Shown: positions 1 through 13,477 of the stretch, piece after piece
Position numbering within the stretch: position 1 is the stretch's first letter
Layout of the letters: each line of letters starts with the position of its first letter
NCBI GenBank assembly: GCA_030668825.1
Contig: DAOVET010000056.1
Location: forward strand, 1 to 15,893
DNA: 15,893 nucleotides
Direction: 5' to 3'
Source of the DNA: Candidatus Heimdallarchaeota archaeon
GTDB taxonomy: Archaea > Asgardarchaeota > Heimdallarchaeia > Heimdallarchaeales > Heimdallarchaeaceae
Notes under the pieces: model-generated
What the model was told of the DNA's origin: nothing
The model's database searches: none
Seen by the model: only the letters and a program-made list of their open reading frames with translations
Made by a program: the position numbers and the translations under genes

Positions 1-1070
1 AGACGTACGCCAAATTCACCAGCAAAGTATAACCCTGGTTCTACAGTAATTACTGAATTCTCTAGTAAGTTTTGAGCTGGTCTCTCGGGATACGACTTAC
101 TAATACCTACACCGATATCATGAGTTTCAATACCAATTGGATGTCCTGTAGAATGAATGAATAACTTTTCATGGTCATAACCAAATTCTTCAAATTTGTC
201 TCTTACAGCTTGTTCAACGATATCTGAAGGAATTCCTGCTTTGATTTTAGTATAAGCTGCTTCCTTTGCTTCGTGAACTGCTTCGTAAGCTCTAAGAACT
301 TCTTCGTTTGGATTGCTACCAATCCAGTATGTATGCGTAATATCAGAATTGGACATATCATAAGCAACCCCATAATCAATTAGAAGAACTTGATTTTCTT
401 TAATTTTACCAGTTCCTGCTTTATGGTGAGGTATAGCTGCATTGGGACCTGAGGCTACTATAGGTTCAAAGGCTACTCCACCTCTTTTATTACACTCAAA
501 TTCAATTATTGCTGCTAACTCTTTTTCTATCATGCCAGGTTTAATCGATGGTTCAATAACATCTTCCATCAATTCTTCTGCAAGCTTAGCTGAAATCTTA
601 TGATTTTCAATTTCTTTCTTGGTTTTGACAGCTCTTACATCATAGATAATCTCATTAGCTGAAATATAATTCAGATTTTTATTCTGATTAGTTAGAGCTT
701 TGAATGCCCCACTTGTTAGAATATCATAATTTAGTTTCTCAAACACTTCTTTCTCTTCAACAAAATTAAGTGCAATCGTTGAGTTATCTGAAATATTATT
801 GAATAGTTTACTTACCAATTCTGTAAATTCATTCCCTTGCTTGTAAGCTTTAATATCATAGGTTTTTTCATCTACAAGCATTTCTTCCATTCTTGATGTA
901 ATAACAGTGGGTTTTCCTGTTTTTGGAATAAGAGTAAGAGTAGCTGATGAAATCCATTTTTCATGTAAATATTTTTGATGAATATCATGAGAATGATGGC
1001 AGAAAATTATCCATCCATCAACATTATGTTTATCTAAAATCGCTTGAATTCTGTCTACTTTTTCATTCAA
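1..1070 (-). CDS. Xaa-Pro aminopeptidase/dipeptidase (M24B family); 3' end lies beyond the window
   Basis: Not in the ORF track because its stop is outside the window. Translated by hand from TTG at 1070 (an in-frame TAG lies just upstream): MNEKVDRIQAILDKHNVDGWIIF...AFEPIVASGPNAAIPHH...LLIDYGVAYDMSNSDITHT...FIHSTGHPIGIETHD...ITVEPGLYFAGEFGVR. These are the M24 metal-ligand motifs. Overlaps the cofC 3' end by 8 bp. Confidence 0.92.
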   Translation of the reverse strand, partial: MNEKVDRIQAILDKHNVDGWIIFCHHSHDIHQKYLHEKWISSATLTLIPKTGKPTVITSRMEEMLVDEKTYDIKAYKQGNEFTELVSKLFNNISDNSTIALNFVEEKEVFEKLNYDILTSGAFKALTNQNKNLNYISANEIIYDVRAVKTKKEIENHKISAKLAEELMEDVIEPSIKPGMIEKELAAIIEFECNKRGGVAFEPIVASGPNAAIPHHKAGTGKIKENQVLLIDYGVAYDMSNSDITHTYWIGSNPNEEVLRAYEAVHEAKEAAYTKIKAGIPSDIVEQAVRDKFEEFGYDHEKLFIHSTGHPIGIETHDIGVGISKSYPERPAQNLLENSVITVEPGLYFAGEFGVR

Positions 1071-1683
1071 AATCTACACATTCCTTAATTATTTGTCTTA
1101 TATTTTCTGGAATAGAATTATTTTCCATTATTTCTAACAAATCCTTAAATTTGTCTATATCTCTGTAAAAGTCCTTACTTTCTAAAATCTCATAAGATAT
1201 GGCTTCTTTTTCAAAAACATCTCTAAATCTTAAGGCTGAATTCTTTCCAAAGACCAATGGAAAAGAGTTATTCTTATTGAAAGTTAATATGCTTGTTCCA
1301 TTATCAGGCGTTGGACCAAGTAATATTTTTTTCTCGATTTTGTGTCTATAAAGAATTTCCTTAATTTCTTCAGATTTAATCAAAGGTAAATCAGCCATAA
1401 CTATTGTTATTATATCCTCTTTTATTTCTTTGAAAGCATTAGTCAGCGATTCATTTAACTCATTTCCCTTATCTAGCAGCAAAGTAAATTTTCCTGAAAA
1501 ACTAAGATTATTTTTCTTTGTTAATATATATAAGTGAACATCTGTTTCAATCATAGATACCTCATTTATAAGATTCTGAGTCATATAATAGAGAAGTTTG
1601 TCAACAGAAGTTTCCTTTAGATCAGACCTTAATCTGCTCTTATCACTCGCTGTTCCTCTATAAGGAATTATTATTGCTTCCAT
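1063..1683 (-). CDS. cofC: 2-phospho-L-lactate/PEP guanylyltransferase (F420 biosynthesis)
   Basis: 206 aa with IIIPYR..DKSRL, MADLPLI, PTPDNGTS, FGKNSA and DIDKFKDL motifs typical of CofC/FbiD; in the same operon as cofD. Confidence 0.88.
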   Translation of the reverse strand: MEAIIIPYRGTASDKSRLRSDLKETSVDKLLYYMTQNLINEVSMIETDVHLYILTKKNNLSFSGKFTLLLDKGNELNESLTNAFKEIKEDIITIVMADLPLIKSEEIKEILYRHKIEKKILLGPTPDNGTSILTFNKNNSFPLVFGKNSALRFRDVFEKEAISYEILESKDFYRDIDKFKDLLEIMENNSIPENIRQIIKECVDFE

Positions 1684-2476
1684 GGTTTTTCTGTCCTGTA
1701 TAATCTTTAACTAATCTTTGAATAAACTTTGGATCTCGAATCAATGGTCTAGCAACAGATACCGCTTTTGCTCCAGCTTCAAACATTGTCTTAATGTCGC
1801 TTATAGTTTGAACAGAGTTATTTCCAATAATTGGTATATCAGTTGAATTAGCGAGATTATGAATTAATTTAATATTAGCTCTGTTGTGTCCTGGTAACAT
1901 AGCATCAGAATGAATGAAACTAATTGAAAATTCATCTAAAATTCCTACAAATTTTTGATACTCATTAACTAAATATCCTCGAATTTTTATTCCTAAAGGA
2001 AATGTAGGAAGTATTGCTCTTATCTTATAAAGTAAGAGTTCCAACCCTTCTAGGTTTATAAGTAAACTCTGTCCCCCATTGGTATTGATAATTTCTTTTT
2101 GACGACAATGAGCATTTATTTCTATAAAATCAACAAATTCAGTAAATTTTTTTAACCACATTTTAGCTAGATTATCAACTTTAGAAAATCTTATGTTAAC
2201 ATTTATGGATTGATGTTTGTTTAGTTTTTCAAGATCTAAATTTTTCCTGCACCACAGTCTAGCATTCTTTTGTTTTGTTGGAAGAACAAACTCCTTTCTC
2301 CCTCTTTCAATCATTTTAATTGTAGCTTTATGAGATTCATAATCTATGGAAAATCCTCCTAAAGTTACCATACCTGCACCATATCTCAGAATTTCTTGGC
2401 AAAAATTTCTATTTGAAATACCAGCTAAGGCAGATTGAACAATTGGTGGTTTAAATTTAAAACCAAAATCTATCAT
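1658..2476 (-). CDS. Archaeal Dus-like FMN TIM-barrel protein (MJ0144/NifR3-related family)
   Basis: SALAGIS, MVTLGG, RGRKEF, IEINAHCRQ, IKIR, HSDAM, IIGNNSV and GAKAVSVAR motifs match the archaeal dihydrouridine synthase-like family. Confidence 0.85.
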   Translation of the reverse strand: MIDFGFKFKPPIVQSALAGISNRNFCQEILRYGAGMVTLGGFSIDYESHKATIKMIERGRKEFVLPTKQKNARLWCRKNLDLEKLNKHQSINVNIRFSKVDNLAKMWLKKFTEFVDFIEINAHCRQKEIINTNGGQSLLINLEGLELLLYKIRAILPTFPLGIKIRGYLVNEYQKFVGILDEFSISFIHSDAMLPGHNRANIKLIHNLANSTDIPIIGNNSVQTISDIKTMFEAGAKAVSVARPLIRDPKFIQRLVKDYTGQKNHGSNNNSL

Positions 2477-2480
2477 CGGA

Positions 2481-3407
2481 CTATCTCCTATTTAGAATGA
2501 AAGAGGAAAGTTTCTTTGGAATAGTTTCATCTCTAAAGAGAATGTTTTGTGTAAGAACTTCTAAACTTGTTTCTTTTTCAATTTCCTCTATATAATTCTT
2601 GTCTGTTTCATGAATTATAATAGTGCTACATATGTCTTTATACATTTTTGCCACACCTACAGGAGATATCTCAAAACCTTTGGTTTTCATCAACTTGCCT
2701 GTCGGTCCACTAACAGGTGCATCACCAATAATTGGACTTATAGCTATACATTTGTTTTTGTTTTTTTCAAGCGTTTTTCTAATGTGTTTAATGTCAATAA
2801 TGGGTCCAATGCTGGTGATTGGGTTACTAGGACCAATTATTATTAATTCTGAAATATCCAATTCATTTAGAGCTAAGTTTGGAACTATTGCTTTTTCAAG
2901 ATCTTTAACATATATATCTTTAATTTCGATTTCTCCTTTGTTTTTCACCCAAAATTCTTGGAAGTGAATGTTCCTATCATCCTTAGTAATAATACGCGTT
3001 TCAATATGATTTTCTGAACTTGGAAAAATCCTTGCTCTAATGCCTAGTTTCTCTCTCAAATTATCAATTATTACAGATTGATTTACTCCCTTTTGCATTT
3101 CATTTGTCCGAAAAACATGCATCCCTAAGTCTTTGTCTCCTAACTGGAACCAAGTGTTTACACCATACCTTTTTAGGAAGTCTAGAGTGTTGTAAGTTTC
3201 ATTTATTACACCCCAGTATTTTTCTGTATCTAATAGGTTGCTGAAGAGATAAAGAATTGTATCAATATCTGGAGAAACATAGTAACCATACACCCAGAAG
3301 TTGTCTGCAGAATTGGCAATTATAGATATTTGTTCTTCCGGAATATTACTTCTAAAACCTTGAATTAGTTTTGGGGTTCCTGTTCCTCCAGATAGGAAAG
3401 TTATCAT
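2481..3407 (-). CDS. cofD: 2-phospho-L-lactate transferase (F420-0 synthase)
   Basis: ITFLSGGTGTPKL, NSADN, SPDIDTILY, WFQLGDKDLG, HFQEFWV, IGPSNPITSIGPI and SPIIGDAPVSGP are canonical CofD motifs. Confidence 0.96.
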   Translation of the reverse strand: MITFLSGGTGTPKLIQGFRSNIPEEQISIIANSADNFWVYGYYVSPDIDTILYLFSNLLDTEKYWGVINETYNTLDFLKRYGVNTWFQLGDKDLGMHVFRTNEMQKGVNQSVIIDNLREKLGIRARIFPSSENHIETRIITKDDRNIHFQEFWVKNKGEIEIKDIYVKDLEKAIVPNLALNELDISELIIIGPSNPITSIGPIIDIKHIRKTLEKNKNKCIAISPIIGDAPVSGPTGKLMKTKGFEISPVGVAKMYKDICSTIIIHETDKNYIEEIEKETSLEVLTQNILFRDETIPKKLSSFILNRR

Positions 3408-3440: not shown

Positions 3441-4253
3441 TTATTTAGCTGATTTTTTTGAGGTTGTTGTTTTAGATTTTGTAGCTTTTTTACTTGGTGC
3501 TTTCTTTGGTTTTTCAGCTTTTTTACTTGGTGTTTTATTTGGTTTTGCGGATGTCTTGCTTGGTTTTTTTTTTGGTTCTTCTTCAACTGGTTTTTCAGGT
3601 GTTTCTTTAGGCTTTTTTAGAGCAGTTTTTCTTGTTGTTTTCTTTTTAATAGTTCCTGTTTCTACTAAACGAAGTCGCGATGTTGACTTTATAACGACTC
3701 TATAATAAGATCCATGTTCTCCCATATCTGGATTTCGAACAATTTTGATAACATCACCAGGTTTTGCTTGAATAGCTTTCACAGCTGCATCATTTTCTAG
3801 GATTTTAGGTATTTGATGTCTTTCAATTTGATATCTCTCTAAGAAGTACTTTATTTCTGGTCTTTTAAGCTTGATATGTTGACGAACTATTTCATGATCA
3901 AAGATGTTAAACAGTGGATTATTACTACTTATAATTTCAATACCCAGTTTAATTGACTCTTTCTTTGCATAATGAGTTAAAGGTGATTCTGCAATAAGAA
4001 GGGCTTCACCAAGCTGTTCTTCCTCTTGTAGTTTTCCTAAAAGTCTAATTAATTTTACACCAATTTGAGGATTTTTTGGAAAACGTGCAATTGCAGTTAT
4101 CTTTTCCTTTTCTTCAGAAATTTTATCAGCATAAACATCTAGGAAATCGTCATCTTCTTTGGTATTTTTAATTTGAAATCCTCTAAATTCAAGAATCTCT
4201 TTAACACCATCCATTATCCTCTTTTCCTTAGCCTTTTGTTCTTTAGAAGACAA
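3441..4253 (-). CDS. rpoH: RNA polymerase subunit Rpb5/RpoH homologue with N-terminal jaw-like domain and Lys-rich C-terminal tail
   Basis: Residues ~114-188 (FNIFDHEIVRQH...QIPKILENDAAVKAIQAKPGDVIKIVR...YYRVV) form the RpoH/Rpb5 C-terminal domain. There is a ~112-aa N-terminal extension and a ~80-aa basic tail. TTG start preceded by GAGGT. Confidence 0.85.
   Translation of the reverse strand: MSSKEQKAKEKRIMDGVKEILEFRGFQIKNTKEDDDFLDVYADKISEEKEKITAIARFPKNPQIGVKLIRLLGKLQEEEQLGEALLIAESPLTHYAKKESIKLGIEIISSNNPLFNIFDHEIVRQHIKLKRPEIKYFLERYQIERHQIPKILENDAAVKAIQAKPGDVIKIVRNPDMGEHGSYYRVVIKSTSRLRLVETGTIKKKTTRKTALKKPKETPEKPVEEEPKKKPSKTSAKPNKTPSKKAEKPKKAPSKKATKSKTTTSKKSAK
3477..3575 (-). repeat. Three degenerate tandem 33-bp (11-aa) coding repeats in the Rpb5 tail
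   Basis: PKKKPSKTSAK / PNKTPSKKAEK / PKKAPSKKATK. AGCTTTTTTACTTGGTG occurs at 3483 and 3516 (33-bp period), with a degenerate third copy at 3549. Confidence 0.75.
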
Positions 4254-5615: not shown

Positions 5616-7883
5616 TTAGGAAAGAAAAGTAAGTTGTTTGAGAACATTGAATAACTCATCAATAGGCAGTTTTTGTAATTTCTTATTTTCTCTTGTTTTT
5701 CTTTCTAGCTCTTTTAGTAAAATACTGTATTCATAAGCTGATTTAGCTAGTTGTGCAAAGGTTGAATCGAATTGTGCAACAGATTGTAAGTGATCACTTG
5801 CATCTTTTGCTGCCTTTGCTCCATCGTTAAAGTGAGAGGCAGCCTTGTAATTTTCCTTATTAGTATCTGCACCAATTCCAAAGATTGCTTTCTTTGTTGC
5901 TTCCAAGAAATCGGTCAAAGCAAGAGATAATATCCTCTTAATTTCAATTGCATTCCAGTTGATATTTGAGTCCCTTAAATCAAACATCTCTTTATGATTT
6001 AATAGTTCTGAACAGTTTTCAGAAATTCGTTTGTTAATTATATCAAATAGAGCAAAATGATTGAAATTGTGATTTATAATTGTAAAATAATTTTTCTTTA
6101 TAGAATTTTCTGCAGATAGTGAGAATCTATATCCTTTAGCAATTTTATCTATTACAGTATTCAAAAACAAATACTGTCTGGATAGCTCAAATAAACGTAA
6201 TTCTACGTCCTGTCCTTGAATAAATGTTTGACTATATCTGTGTTCTACCCATTCCTTATTTATATTTGATTCACTGCTCAATTGAGATATTTCTAGTGCT
6301 TTTGTCGAATAATAATGAGCTTTAGCATGATATATGATATTCAAAACCTCATTTGATTCTTTTTCAACAAGATTTTGTTCTAAATACAAAGAGTTAGCCA
6401 TATACTCTAGACATTCTATGTCTTTCACAATGTAAACTTTCTTTTCTGTTTTAGGAAGGAAATAAGCTGATATCTTTATTGTTTTTATATTTTCTAGTAA
6501 AGGTTGTACATCTTCAGATTTTATTTTTGTATCTGCTTTTTCTATTTCAATCAATTGAGCAGAGATATCATTGATTGCATATTCTAATCTCTCAATAAAA
6601 CGAACTAGATTTTGTTCTGCTCTTCCCATTGCAACTTTCAGGTGTATATTTTCAAGCAAAGCAATTTTTAACTCTTGAACAAAGTTTAGATAAACAAATG
6701 GGAGACTACTTACATAATTGATATTTACCTTTAAACCTGGTTTATTCACTATTTCTTCTATTTGTTCTACGATGCTCTGAATTTCTTCTTTTTTCTCATC
6801 TGCGATTACATTGTACAATATTGAAGTTTTAGCTGCAAGTTCTGCAATTCCATGAAAGAACCTATGTATTGTTTCTTCTTTTTTGATATTTTCTTTTAAT
6901 TTCACAGTTCTTTCGTTCTTTTCCACGTTGGAGTCTAAGATTTTCAAAGCCTCCTCCTCTAGTCCTAGAACGAGATTCAGATATTCGACACTTGCAATAA
7001 AACTATCACTTTTAGCTGCTTCAAAACTCAATCTGAGATAATGGTCAATTAGCTCCTTATTTCTTTGAACTTGATTTAAGGAGATATGACTTGTTTCAAT
7101 TTGATTTCCTTTCAATTCTGGATCTTCAGGTATTTGTTTATAATAATCTAGTGCTACCTCAAGATGGCTTAAACTTCTTTCAAAAGCAAAGTGTGTAGCT
7201 ATTGAATCTTTCCACCACCAATCTTCTCCCAGTCTTTTTAGAAATTGTGCAGTGAAAGAAACATCAAATTCTGCCATTATTAGTTCATAAGCACCCTTTT
7301 CCTCGATTAATTTTTCCTTGCTATATCCATTGGGTGATTCTTCTAAAAGATGTATAATTTGTTTTTTTTGATTAAGTAATAGAAAAGTCAACATTACTTC
7401 TTCTATATTTGAAGCTCTTGGGTGAGATGAATCAAAATATGTTTGAGAAATTGTGTTTAGTATTCTATAACCCTCAATATATGATGTACAATAAACAGGA
7501 GATGGTTGAGAACCAAATATACCTGTATTAACAATATCTGCGTATACAATCATTAATATTGCTAATTCCATCTGGAATTCTTGTAAATCTTCCAATTTTT
7601 GAGTGATATTTTTTTTCCTTTTTTTATCTGCTTTAATTTGAGCTTGATCTCTCGTCCATTCATCCAGAAAACGACTATACAGCAGATGAGATAGCGATGA
7701 AACATTTGAAAGAGTGTTTGCACAAAATTGAGAAAAATCTAACCAAACTTGACTTATTTTATCCAAATCATCTATTTGTACAAAAGATTGGTAAATTCTT
7801 TCACGTTCTAATTCCATTAGTACAAATTGTTTGAATGGTGAATCACTTAGTAACTCGGCAATCTCTTTAGAAAATAACATCAA
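5616..7883 (-). CDS. Hypothetical large alpha-helical (TPR-like) protein
   Basis: 755-aa uninterrupted ORF, rich in Leu/Glu/Ala/Lys helices, with repeat-like segments (AHYYSTKALEI, AASHFNDGAKAAKDA); no catalytic motif recognised. Confidence 0.8.
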   Translation of the reverse strand: MMLFSKEIAELLSDSPFKQFVLMELERERIYQSFVQIDDLDKISQVWLDFSQFCANTLSNVSSLSHLLYSRFLDEWTRDQAQIKADKKRKKNITQKLEDLQEFQMELAILMIVYADIVNTGIFGSQPSPVYCTSYIEGYRILNTISQTYFDSSHPRASNIEEVMLTFLLLNQKKQIIHLLEESPNGYSKEKLIEEKGAYELIMAEFDVSFTAQFLKRLGEDWWWKDSIATHFAFERSLSHLEVALDYYKQIPEDPELKGNQIETSHISLNQVQRNKELIDHYLRLSFEAAKSDSFIASVEYLNLVLGLEEEALKILDSNVEKNERTVKLKENIKKEETIHRFFHGIAELAAKTSILYNVIADEKKEEIQSIVEQIEEIVNKPGLKVNINYVSSLPFVYLNFVQELKIALLENIHLKVAMGRAEQNLVRFIERLEYAINDISAQLIEIEKADTKIKSEDVQPLLENIKTIKISAYFLPKTEKKVYIVKDIECLEYMANSLYLEQNLVEKESNEVLNIIYHAKAHYYSTKALEISQLSSESNINKEWVEHRYSQTFIQGQDVELRLFELSRQYLFLNTVIDKIAKGYRFSLSAENSIKKNYFTIINHNFNHFALFDIINKRISENCSELLNHKEMFDLRDSNINWNAIEIKRILSLALTDFLEATKKAIFGIGADTNKENYKAASHFNDGAKAAKDASDHLQSVAQFDSTFAQLAKSAYEYSILLKELERKTRENKKLQKLPIDELFNVLKQLTFLS

Positions 7884-9597: not shown

Positions 9598-9674
9598 GAT
9601 CCCGTAGCTCAGTTGGATAGAGCGTTTGCCTCCTAAGCAAATGGTCGCGCGTTCGAATCGCGTCGGGATCGCCA
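9598..9674 (+). tRNA. tRNA-Arg (anticodon CCT), intronless, CCA encoded
   Basis: Cloverleaf: acceptor GATCCCG/CGGGATC; D-stem GCTC/GAGC with A20 (Arg identity element); anticodon stem TTTGC/GCAAA with loop CT-CCT-AA; T-arm GCGCG-TTCGAAT-CGCGT; discriminator G followed by CCA. Confidence 0.97.
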
Positions 9675-9710: not shown

Positions 9711-10250
9711 ATGAAAAAACATCCCGCTGTTCAAATTCCTGTTTATATTTGTAATTTCAAAACTTGTAACCCAAAAATGTGTACCGCAATTAGAGTACTT
9801 AAATTCAAGAAAGCTGAACCTATTTCCGTTGGAAAAATTCATTCTAAGCTTATTGTTTTAACTCCATTTGCTGAATATGCTCTTTCTCCTGCTGATTTGG
9901 ATTTGGCTAAGAAAAACGGTGTTGTGGGGGTTGATTGCTCATGGAACAACATAAAAAGCGGGAGCAAAGCTCTTGAGAAAGGAACTGGAAGGGCTTTACC
10001 TTTTCTAATTGCAGCCAATCCAAACAACTATGGTGTTCCTTCTAAATTAAGTACTTTAGAAGCCTTAGCTGCAGCTTTGTTTATTTTGGGAGCTAAAGAA
10101 CAAAGTTTGGCTATATTATCTCTTGTAGAGTGGGGAAAAGAATTCTATAAGATTAACAGGACCTATCTTGAAAGTTACTCCAAATCTAGTAATAGCCATG
10201 AAATTATTGAAACACAAAGAGAAATAATGAACAAACTATATCCTGAATGA
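9711..10250 (+). CDS. tsr3: 16S/18S rRNA aminocarboxypropyltransferase Tsr3
   Basis: CNPKMCTA, LTPFA..ALSPAD, VDCSW and RALPFLIAANPNNYG.PSKLSTLEALAAAL..WG.EF..IN are canonical Tsr3 motifs. Confidence 0.95.
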   Translation: MKKHPAVQIPVYICNFKTCNPKMCTAIRVLKFKKAEPISVGKIHSKLIVLTPFAEYALSPADLDLAKKNGVVGVDCSWNNIKSGSKALEKGTGRALPFLIAANPNNYGVPSKLSTLEALAAALFILGAKEQSLAILSLVEWGKEFYKINRTYLESYSKSSNSHEIIETQREIMNKLYPE

Positions 10251-10320: not shown

Positions 10321-11442
10321 ATGAAAATAGGAATTAACTGCTTCCCAACTGTAGGAGGATCTGGTATTGTTGCTACACAATTAGCAATTGAGTTAGCTAA
10401 AAAAGGTCATGATATACATTTGATAAGTTATGATACACCCTTCTTACTACGAACTTATAGACACCCCAATATAACGCTTGACCTTGTAGATATTATTTCA
10501 TATCCCCTGTTCAAAGATATAGGAACTCCATATACGATATTAGCTGGATCAAAACTTGCTCGTATAGCTGAAAAATCTGATCTGGATTTACTACACATTC
10601 ATTATGCTATTCCTGTAGGAGTTTCAGCATATCTAGCAAAGCAGATTTCTGGTGTTCCTGTCGCAATTACGGCTCATGGTTCTGATATTCATACTTTGGG
10701 AGTAGATCCTGCATATAATCCAGTGATTTCCCATGTTTTTGATAATATTGATGGTTTATCAACTGTTTCAGAATATATGAAAAGAGAGATGGAAGAAAAA
10801 TTTTTTCACAATAAAGAAATTGAAGTTTTATACAATCCAATTGACATTGAAAAATATAAGAGAATAGATACTAAGTTATGTGACTTTAGAATTCAACATG
10901 AGAAAAACTTTGTACACGTTTCAAATTTCAGACCTGTCAAAAATGTCCCATTTATTGTAGAGGCATTCGCTAAAGTGGTTAAAAAACATCCAGACACAGG
11001 ATTGATAATGGTGGGAGAAGGACCTGAAAGAAAGAAATGTGAGGAAATAGCTAGTAAGTTGGGAATAAGGGATAATGTTACTTTCCAAGGAGTCAGAGTT
11101 TCAATCGCGCCAATTTATAACTGCGCTTCAGCTCTATTGTCAGCAAGTACAAACGAAAGCTTCGGGTTAACGATTGCTGAATCTATGTCCTGTGAAATTC
11201 CTGTAATAGCACCTAAAGTTGGTGGGATTCCGGAGGTAATTGACCACGAAGTAAATGGCTATGTCTATGAGCTTGGAAACAGTGAATCATTGGTGAAATA
11301 TATGCTTGAATTATTAGATAATCCTCAACGTGTAAGACAGATGGGTGCAAAAGGGAGACAAAAGGTCATTGATCAATTTGAAGCTGGAAAAATTGCTGAT
11401 AAGTACATTAAGTGGTATAACAGAGTTCTGGAAAATCTATAA
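10321..11442 (+). CDS. bshA: N-acetyl-alpha-D-glucosaminyl L-malate synthase (GT4), bacillithiol biosynthesis
   Basis: MKIGINCFPTVGGSGIVATQLA, SYPLF, HIHYAIP, TAHGSDI, HVSNFRPVK and ESFGL..AESM are BshA-type motifs; adjacent to bshC. ATG at 10321 is preferred over GTG at 10300. Confidence 0.88.
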   Translation: MKIGINCFPTVGGSGIVATQLAIELAKKGHDIHLISYDTPFLLRTYRHPNITLDLVDIISYPLFKDIGTPYTILAGSKLARIAEKSDLDLLHIHYAIPVGVSAYLAKQISGVPVAITAHGSDIHTLGVDPAYNPVISHVFDNIDGLSTVSEYMKREMEEKFFHNKEIEVLYNPIDIEKYKRIDTKLCDFRIQHEKNFVHVSNFRPVKNVPFIVEAFAKVVKKHPDTGLIMVGEGPERKKCEEIASKLGIRDNVTFQGVRVSIAPIYNCASALLSASTNESFGLTIAESMSCEIPVIAPKVGGIPEVIDHEVNGYVYELGNSESLVKYMLELLDNPQRVRQMGAKGRQKVIDQFEAGKIADKYIKWYNRVLENL

Positions 11443-13059
11443 TCTAGCATTAATATAACCTATTCCTCCTATAGGCGTATCTTTGCTATAATAACGCCTA
11501 TATGATGCTAAGTAATCTCCCAATCCCGTTACACTTGCCATGATGAACCAAGGCCAGCTTACTTCTTGCCACTTATGAAATCCATCATACATACCAAATT
11601 GCCAAGATTTGTATCTTTCAATTATACTATTTGGTTTATCTGAGTGTTTTATTACTTCTGACATCTTTGTTTTTATAATATCAGCCAAATGTTCTGATTC
11701 AAAAGACAGTTGTTCTTTTTCTCCTTTTCTTCTAGCTTTAGATAAACTTCCAAGTGTTTTGAAAAAATCTCCTGAAAATAGAGAAATTGATTCATCTTTT
11801 ATTTCATGATTAAGATTTTCAATCCAAGGAGTATTATATAATATTCTTGTATATTTTACAAAAATTGGGAATTTCAGACCAATCTTTCTTGTTGCTGGAA
11901 TTACTTGAGCGTTATAATTAATTTCTCCTGGTCCTGAAACCCTGACATACACTGGCATTATAGCTTGAAGGAGAGCTTGATTAGTATCTAATCTAGGAAC
12001 TAGATTTAAAGAAAGCGAAGAAAGATCAATGTTATTCTTATCAATATCAAATGAATATTTTTCCTCATCTAGAGGGCATTCCCCACTGAATGATAACACA
12101 CTATTTTCTTCTTTACAAGAAAGATTAAGTCTGTAGCCATCATTTGGACATTCATAGAAGAAAGGAGAAAATGTTTCTGCCTTTTTTGCTGTAGTAGTTT
12201 GATATCCTAATTCCTCTATTTTCTCTGATGCTTCATTGAACTCCTTAATATATTCCATTCTTTTTTCAAGAAAAGGTTTGTAACCATCTGTTGTTAACTT
12301 CCTGATTTCAGGATGAGAGGAAGGAAAGAAAATGACACCCCAATCATTAATTATATTCGCTTGGATTCCCCATAATAGAGTGATCCACTCACCTATGTCT
12401 TTCGAAGTCCTATACGTCTCTCTAATAAAAGTGAGAATATGGTCGACTTTCTCTGTGAATATTTCATGAGAGTTTTTTTCTATTGATGTTCTAAATTCAT
12501 TGAATATGTTCTTTACTATTGAAAGACTCTCTTCCATCCATTCATACTGGTTAGCTAAAATTTGGCTTGAAACTAGTCCATCTATTGCATTAGGTAAGAA
12601 AATTGATTTACTTATCGATGATTGATTATTGGGAAGATGAATAGTTGAAATTTCTGGTTGAATGCTATCATGAGTATTTACTAGAAACATAGGAACTAGA
12701 TAATGACCTTTTTCTTTACTAACGTCTGAAATTGTAGTGACTGTAGCAATTTTATTTCCAATAATTCCTGAACCTCCAAAGATAGTAGCTTGTTGTCCTC
12801 CTAAAACTATTCCTTGATGAATCAAATCTATATTGCGACTAACTTTCTCAGTTAGTAAACCTAAATCTTTGTGATAATTCTTAAGAATACGCTTTAATTC
12901 ATCTATTTTGTTGGAATCGATCTTAATTTCAGATGATTCTTTGGCTAAGCTGATTGCATCAGCTATCGTTTTAGGTACATTCCCATAGAAATAATTGATG
13001 TCAGGTAAATTAGAAACGTTTCTAACAAATTTTTCGTACAGGTCACCTAGTGGTCCCAT
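11437..13059 (-). CDS. bshC: Bacillithiol biosynthesis cysteine-adding enzyme BshC (divergent)
   Basis: 540 aa, the expected size. IVLGGQQATIFGG (cf. GQQ..L..G), LVPMF, LSLNLVPR..Q..IMP..VRVSGPGEINYNAQ (cf. GPGE..Y.AQ) and C-terminal WQEV. Convergent with bshA, overlapping it by 6 bp. Confidence 0.82.
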   Translation of the reverse strand: MGPLGDLYEKFVRNVSNLPDINYFYGNVPKTIADAISLAKESSEIKIDSNKIDELKRILKNYHKDLGLLTEKVSRNIDLIHQGIVLGGQQATIFGGSGIIGNKIATVTTISDVSKEKGHYLVPMFLVNTHDSIQPEISTIHLPNNQSSISKSIFLPNAIDGLVSSQILANQYEWMEESLSIVKNIFNEFRTSIEKNSHEIFTEKVDHILTFIRETYRTSKDIGEWITLLWGIQANIINDWGVIFFPSSHPEIRKLTTDGYKPFLEKRMEYIKEFNEASEKIEELGYQTTTAKKAETFSPFFYECPNDGYRLNLSCKEENSVLSFSGECPLDEEKYSFDIDKNNIDLSSLSLNLVPRLDTNQALLQAIMPVYVRVSGPGEINYNAQVIPATRKIGLKFPIFVKYTRILYNTPWIENLNHEIKDESISLFSGDFFKTLGSLSKARRKGEKEQLSFESEHLADIIKTKMSEVIKHSDKPNSIIERYKSWQFGMYDGFHKWQEVSWPWFIMASVTGLGDYLASYRRYYSKDTPIGGIGYINARL

Positions 13060-13312
13060 AGTTTAAAATTAAAATGACTATTCTTAACAATTTTTATATA
13101 TCGTACTTCATTAAGTCCATTGCTGATAAGGTGAAATTTAGCATTATTTATTTCTAGATGCCAATAAAAACCCATATGTCTGCCTTTTCTTCAGTTTTAT
13201 TTGAAAAAATAAGCATATATCTCTAATTTTCATTGATTCTTACATAAATTTTTTAAATGTAAACCTCTTAATGAAACATCAAGTAATAATATTCTAAAGG
13301 TGAAAAAAAGAA

Positions 13313-13477
13313 ATGGCTAAAGAGTGCCCCAAGTGTCACAGTAGGAATTTAAAAGAAGTAGAGGATAAGTCTAAAGCAATTGCGTATTTCAATCATCAAC
13401 CAATCTATAAAAAGAAAAATGTCTGTAAAGAATGCACATACGAATGGTCCGATGAAGGCGGCGCAGAGGCTGTATAA
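13313..13477 (+). CDS. Small C4 Zn-ribbon protein (54 aa), not in the ORF track
   Basis: MAKECPKCHSRNLKEVEDKSKAIAYFNHQPIYKKKNVCKECTYEWSDEGGAEAV*. Two CxxC pairs, SD AGGTGA at 13298-13303, and a pyrimidine-rich tract after the stop. Confidence 0.85.
   Translation: MAKECPKCHSRNLKEVEDKSKAIAYFNHQPIYKKKNVCKECTYEWSDEGGAEAV

Follow-up and report, generated by a model that had tools for sequence, protein, structure and literature searches.

A predicted bacillithiol gene set with a separate, archaeal-type BshC in Heimdallarchaeaceae

Bacillithiol is made in Bacillota, Deinococcus-Thermus and Chlorobiota by BshA, BshB and BshC, which are a malate glycosyltransferase of family 4 (GT4), a PIG-L/LmbE deacetylase and a Rossmann-like protein, respectively. 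The mycothiol pathway of Actinomycetota (MshA-MshB-MshC-MshD) resembles it in its use of a GT4 enzyme, a PIG-L deacetylase and a protein similar to class I aminoacyl-tRNA synthetases (aaRS) that places cysteine onto glucosamine (GlcN); this last protein, MshC, is a paralogue of the cysteinyl synthetase, CysRS. In eukaryotes, which are close relatives of the archaeon described here, synthesis of the glycosylphosphatidylinositol (GPI) anchor also pairs a GT4-type N-acetylglucosamine (GlcNAc) transferase, PIG-A, with a de-N-acetylase of the PIG-L family. The window, i.e. the whole stretch of DNA analysed, is an entire contig (C61, 15,893 bp) from a metagenome-assembled genome (MAG) of an Asgard archaeon of the Heimdallarchaeaceae, and carries the genes bshA and bshC, the latter of a type that we designate archaeal; a candidate for bshB is found on another contig (C34) of the same genome (Table 1). 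The genome comprises 2.76 Mb in 138 contigs, with 33.4 % GC, an estimated completeness of 90.6 % and an estimated contamination of 4.67 %. We consider it fairly probable that these genes constitute a native, conserved and complete three-enzyme pathway to bacillithiol or to a close derivative.

Archaeal homologues of two of these enzymes were already in print. The passages cited here from Rawat and Maupin-Furlow (2020; PMC7278568) count 39 archaeal InterPro hits for BshA and another 39 for BshC, most of them from Asgard members, plus two for YpdA, and state that no sugar-type low-molecular-weight thiol had been detected in archaea as of that review. A later study (PMC12719100, from 2025) reports, in the part cited here, that BLAST searches of RefSeq with Chlorobaculum queries found no archaeon with the full pathway, a negative result that our data explain by the divergence of archaeal BshC and BshB. 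Also, the NCBI annotation names BshA and BshC in MAGs of Heimdallarchaeaceae and Bathyarchaeota. The novelty attributed to this gene pair by an earlier note, made from the sequence of the window alone, was thus overrated, and their presence in an Asgard archaeon is of limited surprise. What is new here is the bshB candidate, the archaeal-type BshC clade and its distribution, the lack of the bacterial recycling proteins, and a conserved pair formed by bshB and a gene for a flavoprotein similar to thioredoxin reductase (TrxR). A hint from two genes becomes in this way a complete and testable set, in which bshA is joined by a particular candidate for bshB and by a bshC of defined archaeal type, and the lineages with and without the set are mapped.

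The product of bshA scored 365.5 bits against the equivalog model TIGR03999 (cut-off 273.7), aligning to profile positions 1–374 of 375, and is the only GT4 protein of the genome above this cut-off, the runner-up reaching 113 bits. It matched both PF13439 and PF00534, as corresponds to the two-domain GT-B/GT4 architecture, and the nearest solved structures are BshA from B. anthracis (2jjm/3mbo, E 5e-81) and B. subtilis (5d00, 7e-74), together with that from S. aureus; 6n1x was matched with an E value of 1e-68 and the next family with only 2e-18. Models for other GT4 enzymes were matched far below their cut-offs, with 73.5 versus 462.5 bits for MshA (TIGR03449) and a faint 60.5 versus 480 bits for GlcNAc-phosphatidylglycerol (PG) synthase. 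The likely start codon is the ATG at 10,321, although a longer open reading frame (ORF) starting with GTG exists, because the match to TIGR03999 begins at residue 8 of the longer ORF and close homologues have 373 aa. By analogy with the bacterial pathway, the substrates of the enzyme would be UDP-GlcNAc and L-malate.

The assignment of BshC is at the level of family and fold. Residues 40–401, containing the N-terminal Rossmann-like domain, matched PF10079 with 94.7 bits (cut-off 27). An AlphaFold2 model generated from 41 relatives (pLDDT 94.5, pTM 0.94) had BshC from B. subtilis (4wbd) as its top Foldseek match (E 6.2e-20, TM 0.67). With VIA-align, the model superposed on 4WBD with a Z score of 34.2 and a root-mean-square deviation of 2.7 Å for 449 of 540 residues, across the model range 1–538; the C-terminal 110 residues of the model are helical. 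After 4WBD, the runners-up were class I lysyl-tRNA synthetase, LysRS (Z 21), and other class I aaRS (Z 9–12). The similarity to class I synthetases (LysRS-I, GluRS, MetRS, CysRS; Z 9–21) concerns the Rossmann catalytic core, whereas no aaRS family model or anticodon-binding domain was matched by the protein, and the match to BshC was far stronger. In contrast to MshC of the mycothiol pathway, the CysRS paralogue, its fold is closest to BshC and next to class I LysRS. The predicted layout comprises the class-I-aaRS-like Rossmann core, a degenerate Cys-rich beta insert (residues ca. 300–340) and a non-canonical C-terminal region. An alignment of 22 sequences of archaeal-type BshC, of the type found in Asgard family f7 (see below) and of BshC from Niallia contained 14 invariant columns, including the motifs GGQQ and GPGE-x-Y. 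According to the passages cited from PMC5790435, BshC was first identified by its co-occurrence and co-localisation with bshA; in the present data, the two genes are adjacent in 22 of 23 loci from Heimdall archaea and in 41 of the 44 loci of a wider set (see below). The identities proposed in the earlier note for both genes were borne out, for BshA at the equivalog level and for BshC at the level of family and fold, below the equivalog cut-off.

Archaeal-type BshC forms a group of its own. From 1.84 billion representative proteins, a profile built on 41 sequences of this type retrieved 3678 at E ≤ 1e-3, only 65 of which at E ≤ 1e-30. Scores of full-length archaeal-type hits decreased from 776 to 275 bits, and after a gap the other BshC-like proteins reached at most 132 bits, matching only profile positions ca. 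20–400. We then examined an unrooted, quick maximum-likelihood tree of 88 rows, of which those of archaeal type were the window protein, 18 proteins translated from loci and 20, i.e. not all, of the full-length representatives, the others being two f7 proteins, P0107, 45 of the 67 full-length lower-scoring representatives and the Niallia BshC. All 39 archaeal-type rows were on one side of a branch with a Shimodaira-Hasegawa-like approximate likelihood ratio (SH-aLRT) support of 98. Within them, the Heimdall sequences from families f1 (that of the window), f3, f4 and f32 formed a clade of 14 rows (support 100), and those from Thorarchaeia (Thor) and Bathyarchaeota grouped together (support 88). 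The members of the archaeal-type clade that carry a name are from Heimdall-, Thor-, Hermod- and Promethearchaeota, Candidatus Harpocratesius and Bathyarchaeota. Archaeal-type BshC contains a Cys-rich beta-hairpin insert that has no counterpart in the bacterial type, with the pattern C-x4-C … C-x2-C in the Thor, Bathyarchaeota and f12 sequences and a degenerate set of cysteines in the family of the window; most f3, f4 and f32 sequences have three cysteines, and one f4 sequence (L042) has four. To the bacterial enzyme, the chemistry of which is unsolved, the archaeal-type clade would add a second and very remote version, and its comparison with the bacterial type could help to find the cysteine donor or partner of BshC.

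The remaining rows of the tree are not homogeneous, and we rejected the label canonical for all of them. In one clade, the five proteins tested passed the TIGR03998 cut-off with 386–563 bits, among them BshC from Bacillus haimaensis and an f7 protein. In a third BshC-like clade, of 20 rows, none of the eight proteins tested reached it, with no match for six and 39–41 bits for the other two. The genetic context of this third clade comes from a single locus of a metagenome contig (L111:4910-6601), no relative having been found in genome contigs, and there the gene is situated between those for a CE4 polysaccharide deacetylase, a GT2 glycosyltransferase and a UDP-GlcNAc 2-epimerase. Such polysaccharide-type surroundings are a hint of a wider action of the fold on amino sugars.

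As anticipated in the earlier note, bshB lies outside the window, where a family scan of the 15,893 bp found no PIG-L gene. The genome does contain four PIG-L genes. The best of them, on contig C34, codes for a protein in which AHPDDE and HIDH are visible, which we take to be metal-binding motifs, and scored 47 bits against the MshB model (TIGR03445), versus a cut-off of 224. It was picked as the right PIG-L gene from the genetic context in other lineages, in many of which the genes are clustered. Of 12 bshA/bshC loci taken from six further Asgard families, 11 have a PIG-L gene directly adjoining bshA or bshC, and in the twelfth it is 3.5 kb away. Nine of these 12 PIG-L proteins had the C34 protein as their best match in the genome (34–48 % identity, E 3e-36 to 1e-60), two f7 proteins matched it weakly and one from f32 favoured other paralogues. 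The linkage of the three genes was also evident in a wider set of 44 loci, including 32 found with one Thor protein (from Thor-, Hermod- and Bathyarchaeota), with BshC in all of them, BshA in 41 and a PIG-L gene in 38; a number of the loci are truncated. Orthologues of the C34 gene are present in all 31 genomes of the family and, in relatives with longer contigs, they are located on the same contig as bshA and bshC at ca. 10–25 kb, which is why bshB falls off a contig of 15.9 kb. The earlier note would have given up the pathway had the genome lacked a PIG-L deacetylase; it possesses one whose orthologues are linked to bsh clusters.

The order tsr3-bshA-bshC, with bshA and bshC convergent, is conserved in 22 of 23 related Heimdall loci, the remaining one ending inside bshC; among the loci are two complete chromosomes, those of Ca. 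Heimdallarchaeum aukensis and Ca. Heimdallarchaeum endolithica, whose BshC are 51–53 % identical to that of the window; identity was 94–96 % in MAGs titled Candidatus Heimdallarchaeota and 77 % in AB_125. Both the tsr3/bshA and the bshA/bshC junctions are spanned by contigs from three DNA runs that belong to three independent studies, on marine sediment and cold seep. Together with the conserved order, this indicates that the locus is not a chimera, a possibility that the earlier note had raised for the tsr3/bshA junction. A further run (X20, labelled "RNA?", probably DNA) yielded four short contigs, 100 % identical, inside bshA, bshC and the neighbouring zinc-ribbon gene. From comparisons of 15 pairs each, the ratio of nonsynonymous to synonymous substitution rates (dN/dS) was 0.05–0.14 for bshA and 0.10–0.22 for bshC, as expected for genes under purifying selection. 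In 1-kb windows, the GC content was 0.32–0.355 across bshA and bshC, 0.29–0.34 elsewhere in the contig and 0.334 for the genome, in agreement with the similar base composition described previously. The earlier note interpreted it as a sign of old acquisition. An old presence of the bsh genes in the lineage is supported by sequence comparisons, namely synteny down to 51 % identity in BshC, host-like GC and the grouping of the sampled Heimdall BshC proteins, with those of Thor and Bathyarchaeota apart; as the BshC tree is unrooted, the lineage may or may not have acquired the genes by transfer.

Of 400 Asgard genomes, 146 had a BshA above its cut-off and 156 a PF10079 match above the cut-off of that model, and the families concerned coincide. 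By family, the numbers of genomes with BshA and with BshC, respectively, were 29/30 and 29/30 in f1, 1/1 and 1/1 in f2, 3/3 and 3/3 in f3, 12/12 and 11/12 in f4, 11/12 and 11/12 in f7, 16/19 and 17/19 in f12, and 78/89 and 77/89 in the last three families, a set that contains Thorarchaeia; no BshA above the cut-off was found among 22 genomes of f5 and 135 of f20. Outside Asgard archaea, 8 of 151 sampled genomes of the Bathyarchaeota class had a BshC-type gene (E ≤ 1e-8). Family f7 and one f24 genome differ in carrying bacterial-type BshC, with 227–280 bits against PF10079. Two f7 loci (L039:6287-9684 and L049:5709-9139) present a co-directional bshC-bshB-bshA cluster, with 386 bits against TIGR03998 and PF24850 present. 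This bacterial-type cluster apparently stands in for the archaeal type and looks like a replacement by transfer.

From these data we propose that BshA would move GlcNAc from UDP-GlcNAc onto L-malate, that the C34 deacetylase would strip the acetyl group to give GlcN-malate, and that the divergent archaeal-type BshC would join cysteine to the free amine, producing bacillithiol or a very close derivative; the last reaction, as the first, is modelled on the bacterial pathway. A redox or detoxification role for the resulting thiol would likewise follow from that of its bacterial equivalent. A broader scenario, which we regard as possible but rather doubtful, is that an ancient, archaeal form of the bacillithiol pathway, with a separate BshC bearing a zinc-ribbon insert, was passed down to Heimdallarchaeia, to Thorarchaeia and to a minor part of the Bathyarchaeia, and that its product serves them as main redox and detoxification buffer, recycled by an enzyme other than Bdr. 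If true, archaea near the eukaryotic ancestor would depend on a sugar-cysteine thiol for these functions.

Several results weigh against the pathway as proposed. BshC reached only 99.8 bits against TIGR03998 (cut-off 265.8) and so missed the equivalog level, as did its relatives from Thor, f12 and Bathyarchaeota (64.6–86.2 bits); it is ca. 18–19 % identical to bacterial BshC, and the model for the C-terminal coiled-coil, PF24850, had no match in the window protein, whereas an f7-type protein matched it at 75 bits. The four PIG-L proteins of the genome are below the BshB1 and BshB2 cut-offs, the C34 protein scoring 93.2 versus 182.5 bits (BshB1) and 64.6 versus 195.25 (BshB2) with TIGR04001/TIGR04000. 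A search for the recycling proteins of bacteria, advised in the earlier note for brxA/B and bdr/ypdA, gave in this 90.6 %-complete genome nothing above the cut-off for Bdr/YpdA (TIGR04018, best 70.5 versus 339.9 bits) and no match to BrxA/B (PF06491) or BrxC/YtxJ (TIGR04019). The context of the third clade indicates that the BshC fold is probably not tied to bacillithiol alone. Moreover, according to the passages cited from PMC5790435, in vitro reconstitution of the BshC reaction has not been achieved with the enzyme of any organism, so that the designation cysteine-adding rests on bacterial genetics, and bacillithiol had not been detected in any archaeon in those cited from the 2020 review (PMC7278568).

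The lack of matches to the bacterial recycling proteins points to a different reductase, which is probably required if the thiol functions as a redox buffer. In 10 out of 10 loci of the family, the gene for the deacetylase is immediately preceded by that for the TrxR-like flavoprotein, whose score against TIGR01292 (198.7 bits) makes it the most divergent of four paralogues (the others with 293.7, 292.7 and 212 bits); two f4 loci also have TrxR-like genes, more distant ones, next to bshC. As a speculation, this bshB-paired flavoprotein could be a bacillithiol-type disulfide reductase and would recycle the oxidised thiol in our scheme. A glutamate-cysteine ligase of the GCS2 type was not found in the genome. 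The DinB_2 superfamily includes bacillithiol and mycothiol S-transferases, and the genome contained five matches to DinB_2 and four to DinB; in control searches, these models matched bacillithiol producers and none of four control archaea. Both observations, on GCS2 and on DinB_2, count in favour of the pathway.

The divergence of the archaeal proteins could mean that the pathway ends in a compound akin to bacillithiol but distinct from it, in which the aglycone is another one, the cysteine is modified (e.g., N-methylated) or a different amino acid takes its place; the product would then be an analogue of bacillithiol or even a non-thiol. This is what might be expected from a BshC in a clade of its own (SH-aLRT 98), separated from other BshC-like proteins by the gap between 275 and 132 bits, with a zinc-ribbon-like Cys-rich insert foreign to the bacterial type and a divergent C-terminal sequence, as well as from a deacetylase below the BshB equivalog cut-offs and a genome where the known redox partners were not found; the chemistry of BshC is also unsettled in bacteria themselves, in the passages cited from PMC5790435. 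We nevertheless hold a different product to be unlikely: BshA is at the equivalog level and near biochemically characterised malate synthases, the 14 invariant columns are common to archaeal- and bacterial-type BshC, and the bacterial-type cluster that f7 bears in place of the archaeal type fits with a functional equivalence of both. Less likely still would be a role away from redox metabolism, in which the genes make a GlcN-malate- or GlcNAc-malate-type solute or a precursor of the cell envelope or of glycoconjugates, or in which a BshC-like protein aminoacylates an amino sugar of a larger molecule. The polysaccharide-related neighbours of the third clade (in one locus, L111) and the missing thiol-recycling genes of the bacterial kind agree with such a role, and so would the flippase-like gene near bshC, which faintly matched a GlcN-phosphatidylglycerol flippase model (30.4 versus 320 bits). 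That gene, however, neighbours the bsh genes only in f1, without a match in 12 clusters of other families, whereas the constant element across phyla is the triad of soluble BshA, PIG-L and BshC, and BshA itself is clearly a better match to its own model than to GlcNAc-PG synthase. A lipid reading (GlcN-PG or GPI-like) of the combination of GT4, PIG-L and flippase-like genes was set aside on the same grounds of an f1-restricted neighbour. In GPI synthesis the acceptor is phosphatidylinositol on the membrane, whereas here a soluble BshA equivalog is partnered with BshC, and nothing among our results pointed to a lipid acceptor.

That the pathway is best known from bacteria, and that the MAG is composed of 138 contigs with some estimated contamination, might also suggest a mis-binned or mis-assembled bacterial fragment, or a very recent transfer. 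We find this hardly credible, with archaeal genes on the same contig (RpoH, tsr3, DUF1922, OapC), a gene order maintained in nearly all Heimdall loci including complete chromosomes, contigs of three studies that span the junctions, a GC content like that of the host, and a BshC clade whose named members are all labelled as archaea. The preferred reading, a pathway native to the archaeon that leads to bacillithiol or a close derivative, is the one that we retain.

Table 1. Location of the genes and other features described in this work. Positions are those of the window unless another contig is given.
Feature	Position	Strand	Evidence or remarks
bshA	10321..11442	+	GT4 glycosyltransferase; TIGR03999 match
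bshC, archaeal type, predicted cysteine-adding enzyme (540 aa)	11437..13059	-	PF10079 match
Convergent abutting stop codons, CTA/TAA	11437..11442	.	Read in the sequence
bshB candidate, PIG-L-family deacetylase	C34:146-835		PF02585, 83.7 bits versus 28.2
TrxR-like flavoprotein, CSVC motif	C34:841-1866 (locus L002)	-	Directly upstream of the bshB candidate
tsr3 (16S rRNA acp transferase family)	9711..10250	+	NF002621, 188.6 bits versus cut-off of 152; PF04034
tRNA-Arg(CCT)	9598..9674		tRNA gene call
Zinc-ribbon ORF with four Cys (54 aa)	13313..13477	+	Read in the sequence; divergent from bshC

The convergent arrangement of bshA and bshC noted previously is correct, although their stop codons abut rather than overlap: in the hexamer CTATAA, CTA is the TAG stop codon of bshC and is followed by the TAA of bshA. 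The same zero-gap arrangement occurs in loci L015-L019 and L029. Upstream of bshA, the identification of tsr3 and of a tRNA gene as archaeal neighbours was also correct, with an A/T-rich, TATA-like stretch ca. 15–25 nt upstream of the tRNA gene, and the host is indeed an archaeon. Gene tsr3 is a conserved upstream neighbour of bshA that provides context only and is outside the pathway.

On the other side, the zinc-ribbon ORF is conserved with 65–98 % identity, better than BshC; of the 20 Heimdall loci that extend to that side, 18 have it at no more than ca. 0.7 kb from bshC. Its homologues occur in f1, f2, f3, f7, some f4 and one of two f6 genomes, and in none of 22 f5 genomes; outside f1 they are located elsewhere in the genome, not beside the bsh genes. 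It is a family-conserved neighbour of bshC by position alone, and in the window BshC the internal insert rich in Cys has in part been lost; as a partner of BshC the ORF was set aside, given that the association is one of neighbourhood and that its homologues outside f1 are elsewhere. In the intergenic region between bshC and this ORF (13,099–13,291), contigs from DNA run X6 skip 37 or 188 bases and several runs have loose contig ends near 13,199–13,230, which suggests strain-level variation or a repeat. Further along the contig (13,568–14,722, + strand) there is a flippase-like membrane protein gene with an LPG_synthase_TM domain, adjacent to the bsh genes only in f1.

The remaining genes of the contig are archaeal in character and include those for RpoH, DUF1922 and OapC, cofC and cofD, and a dihydrouridine-synthase (Dus)-like protein of the MJ0144 family. 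The F420 biosynthesis genes cofC and cofD are situated on either side of the Dus-like gene (1,063–3,407, - strand). The gene at 3,441–4,253 (- strand) codes for RNA polymerase subunit H (Rpb5 C-domain, residues 115–187) fused to an N-terminal region with weak matches to Mrr_cat and restriction-endonuclease-like domains; the fusion is conserved in related Heimdall loci with 68–92 % identity. Finally, an ORF of 755 aa (5,616–7,883, - strand) had no match in Pfam or NCBIfam and is conserved in Heimdall loci with 73–94 % identity, with a partial match of 52 % in L033.

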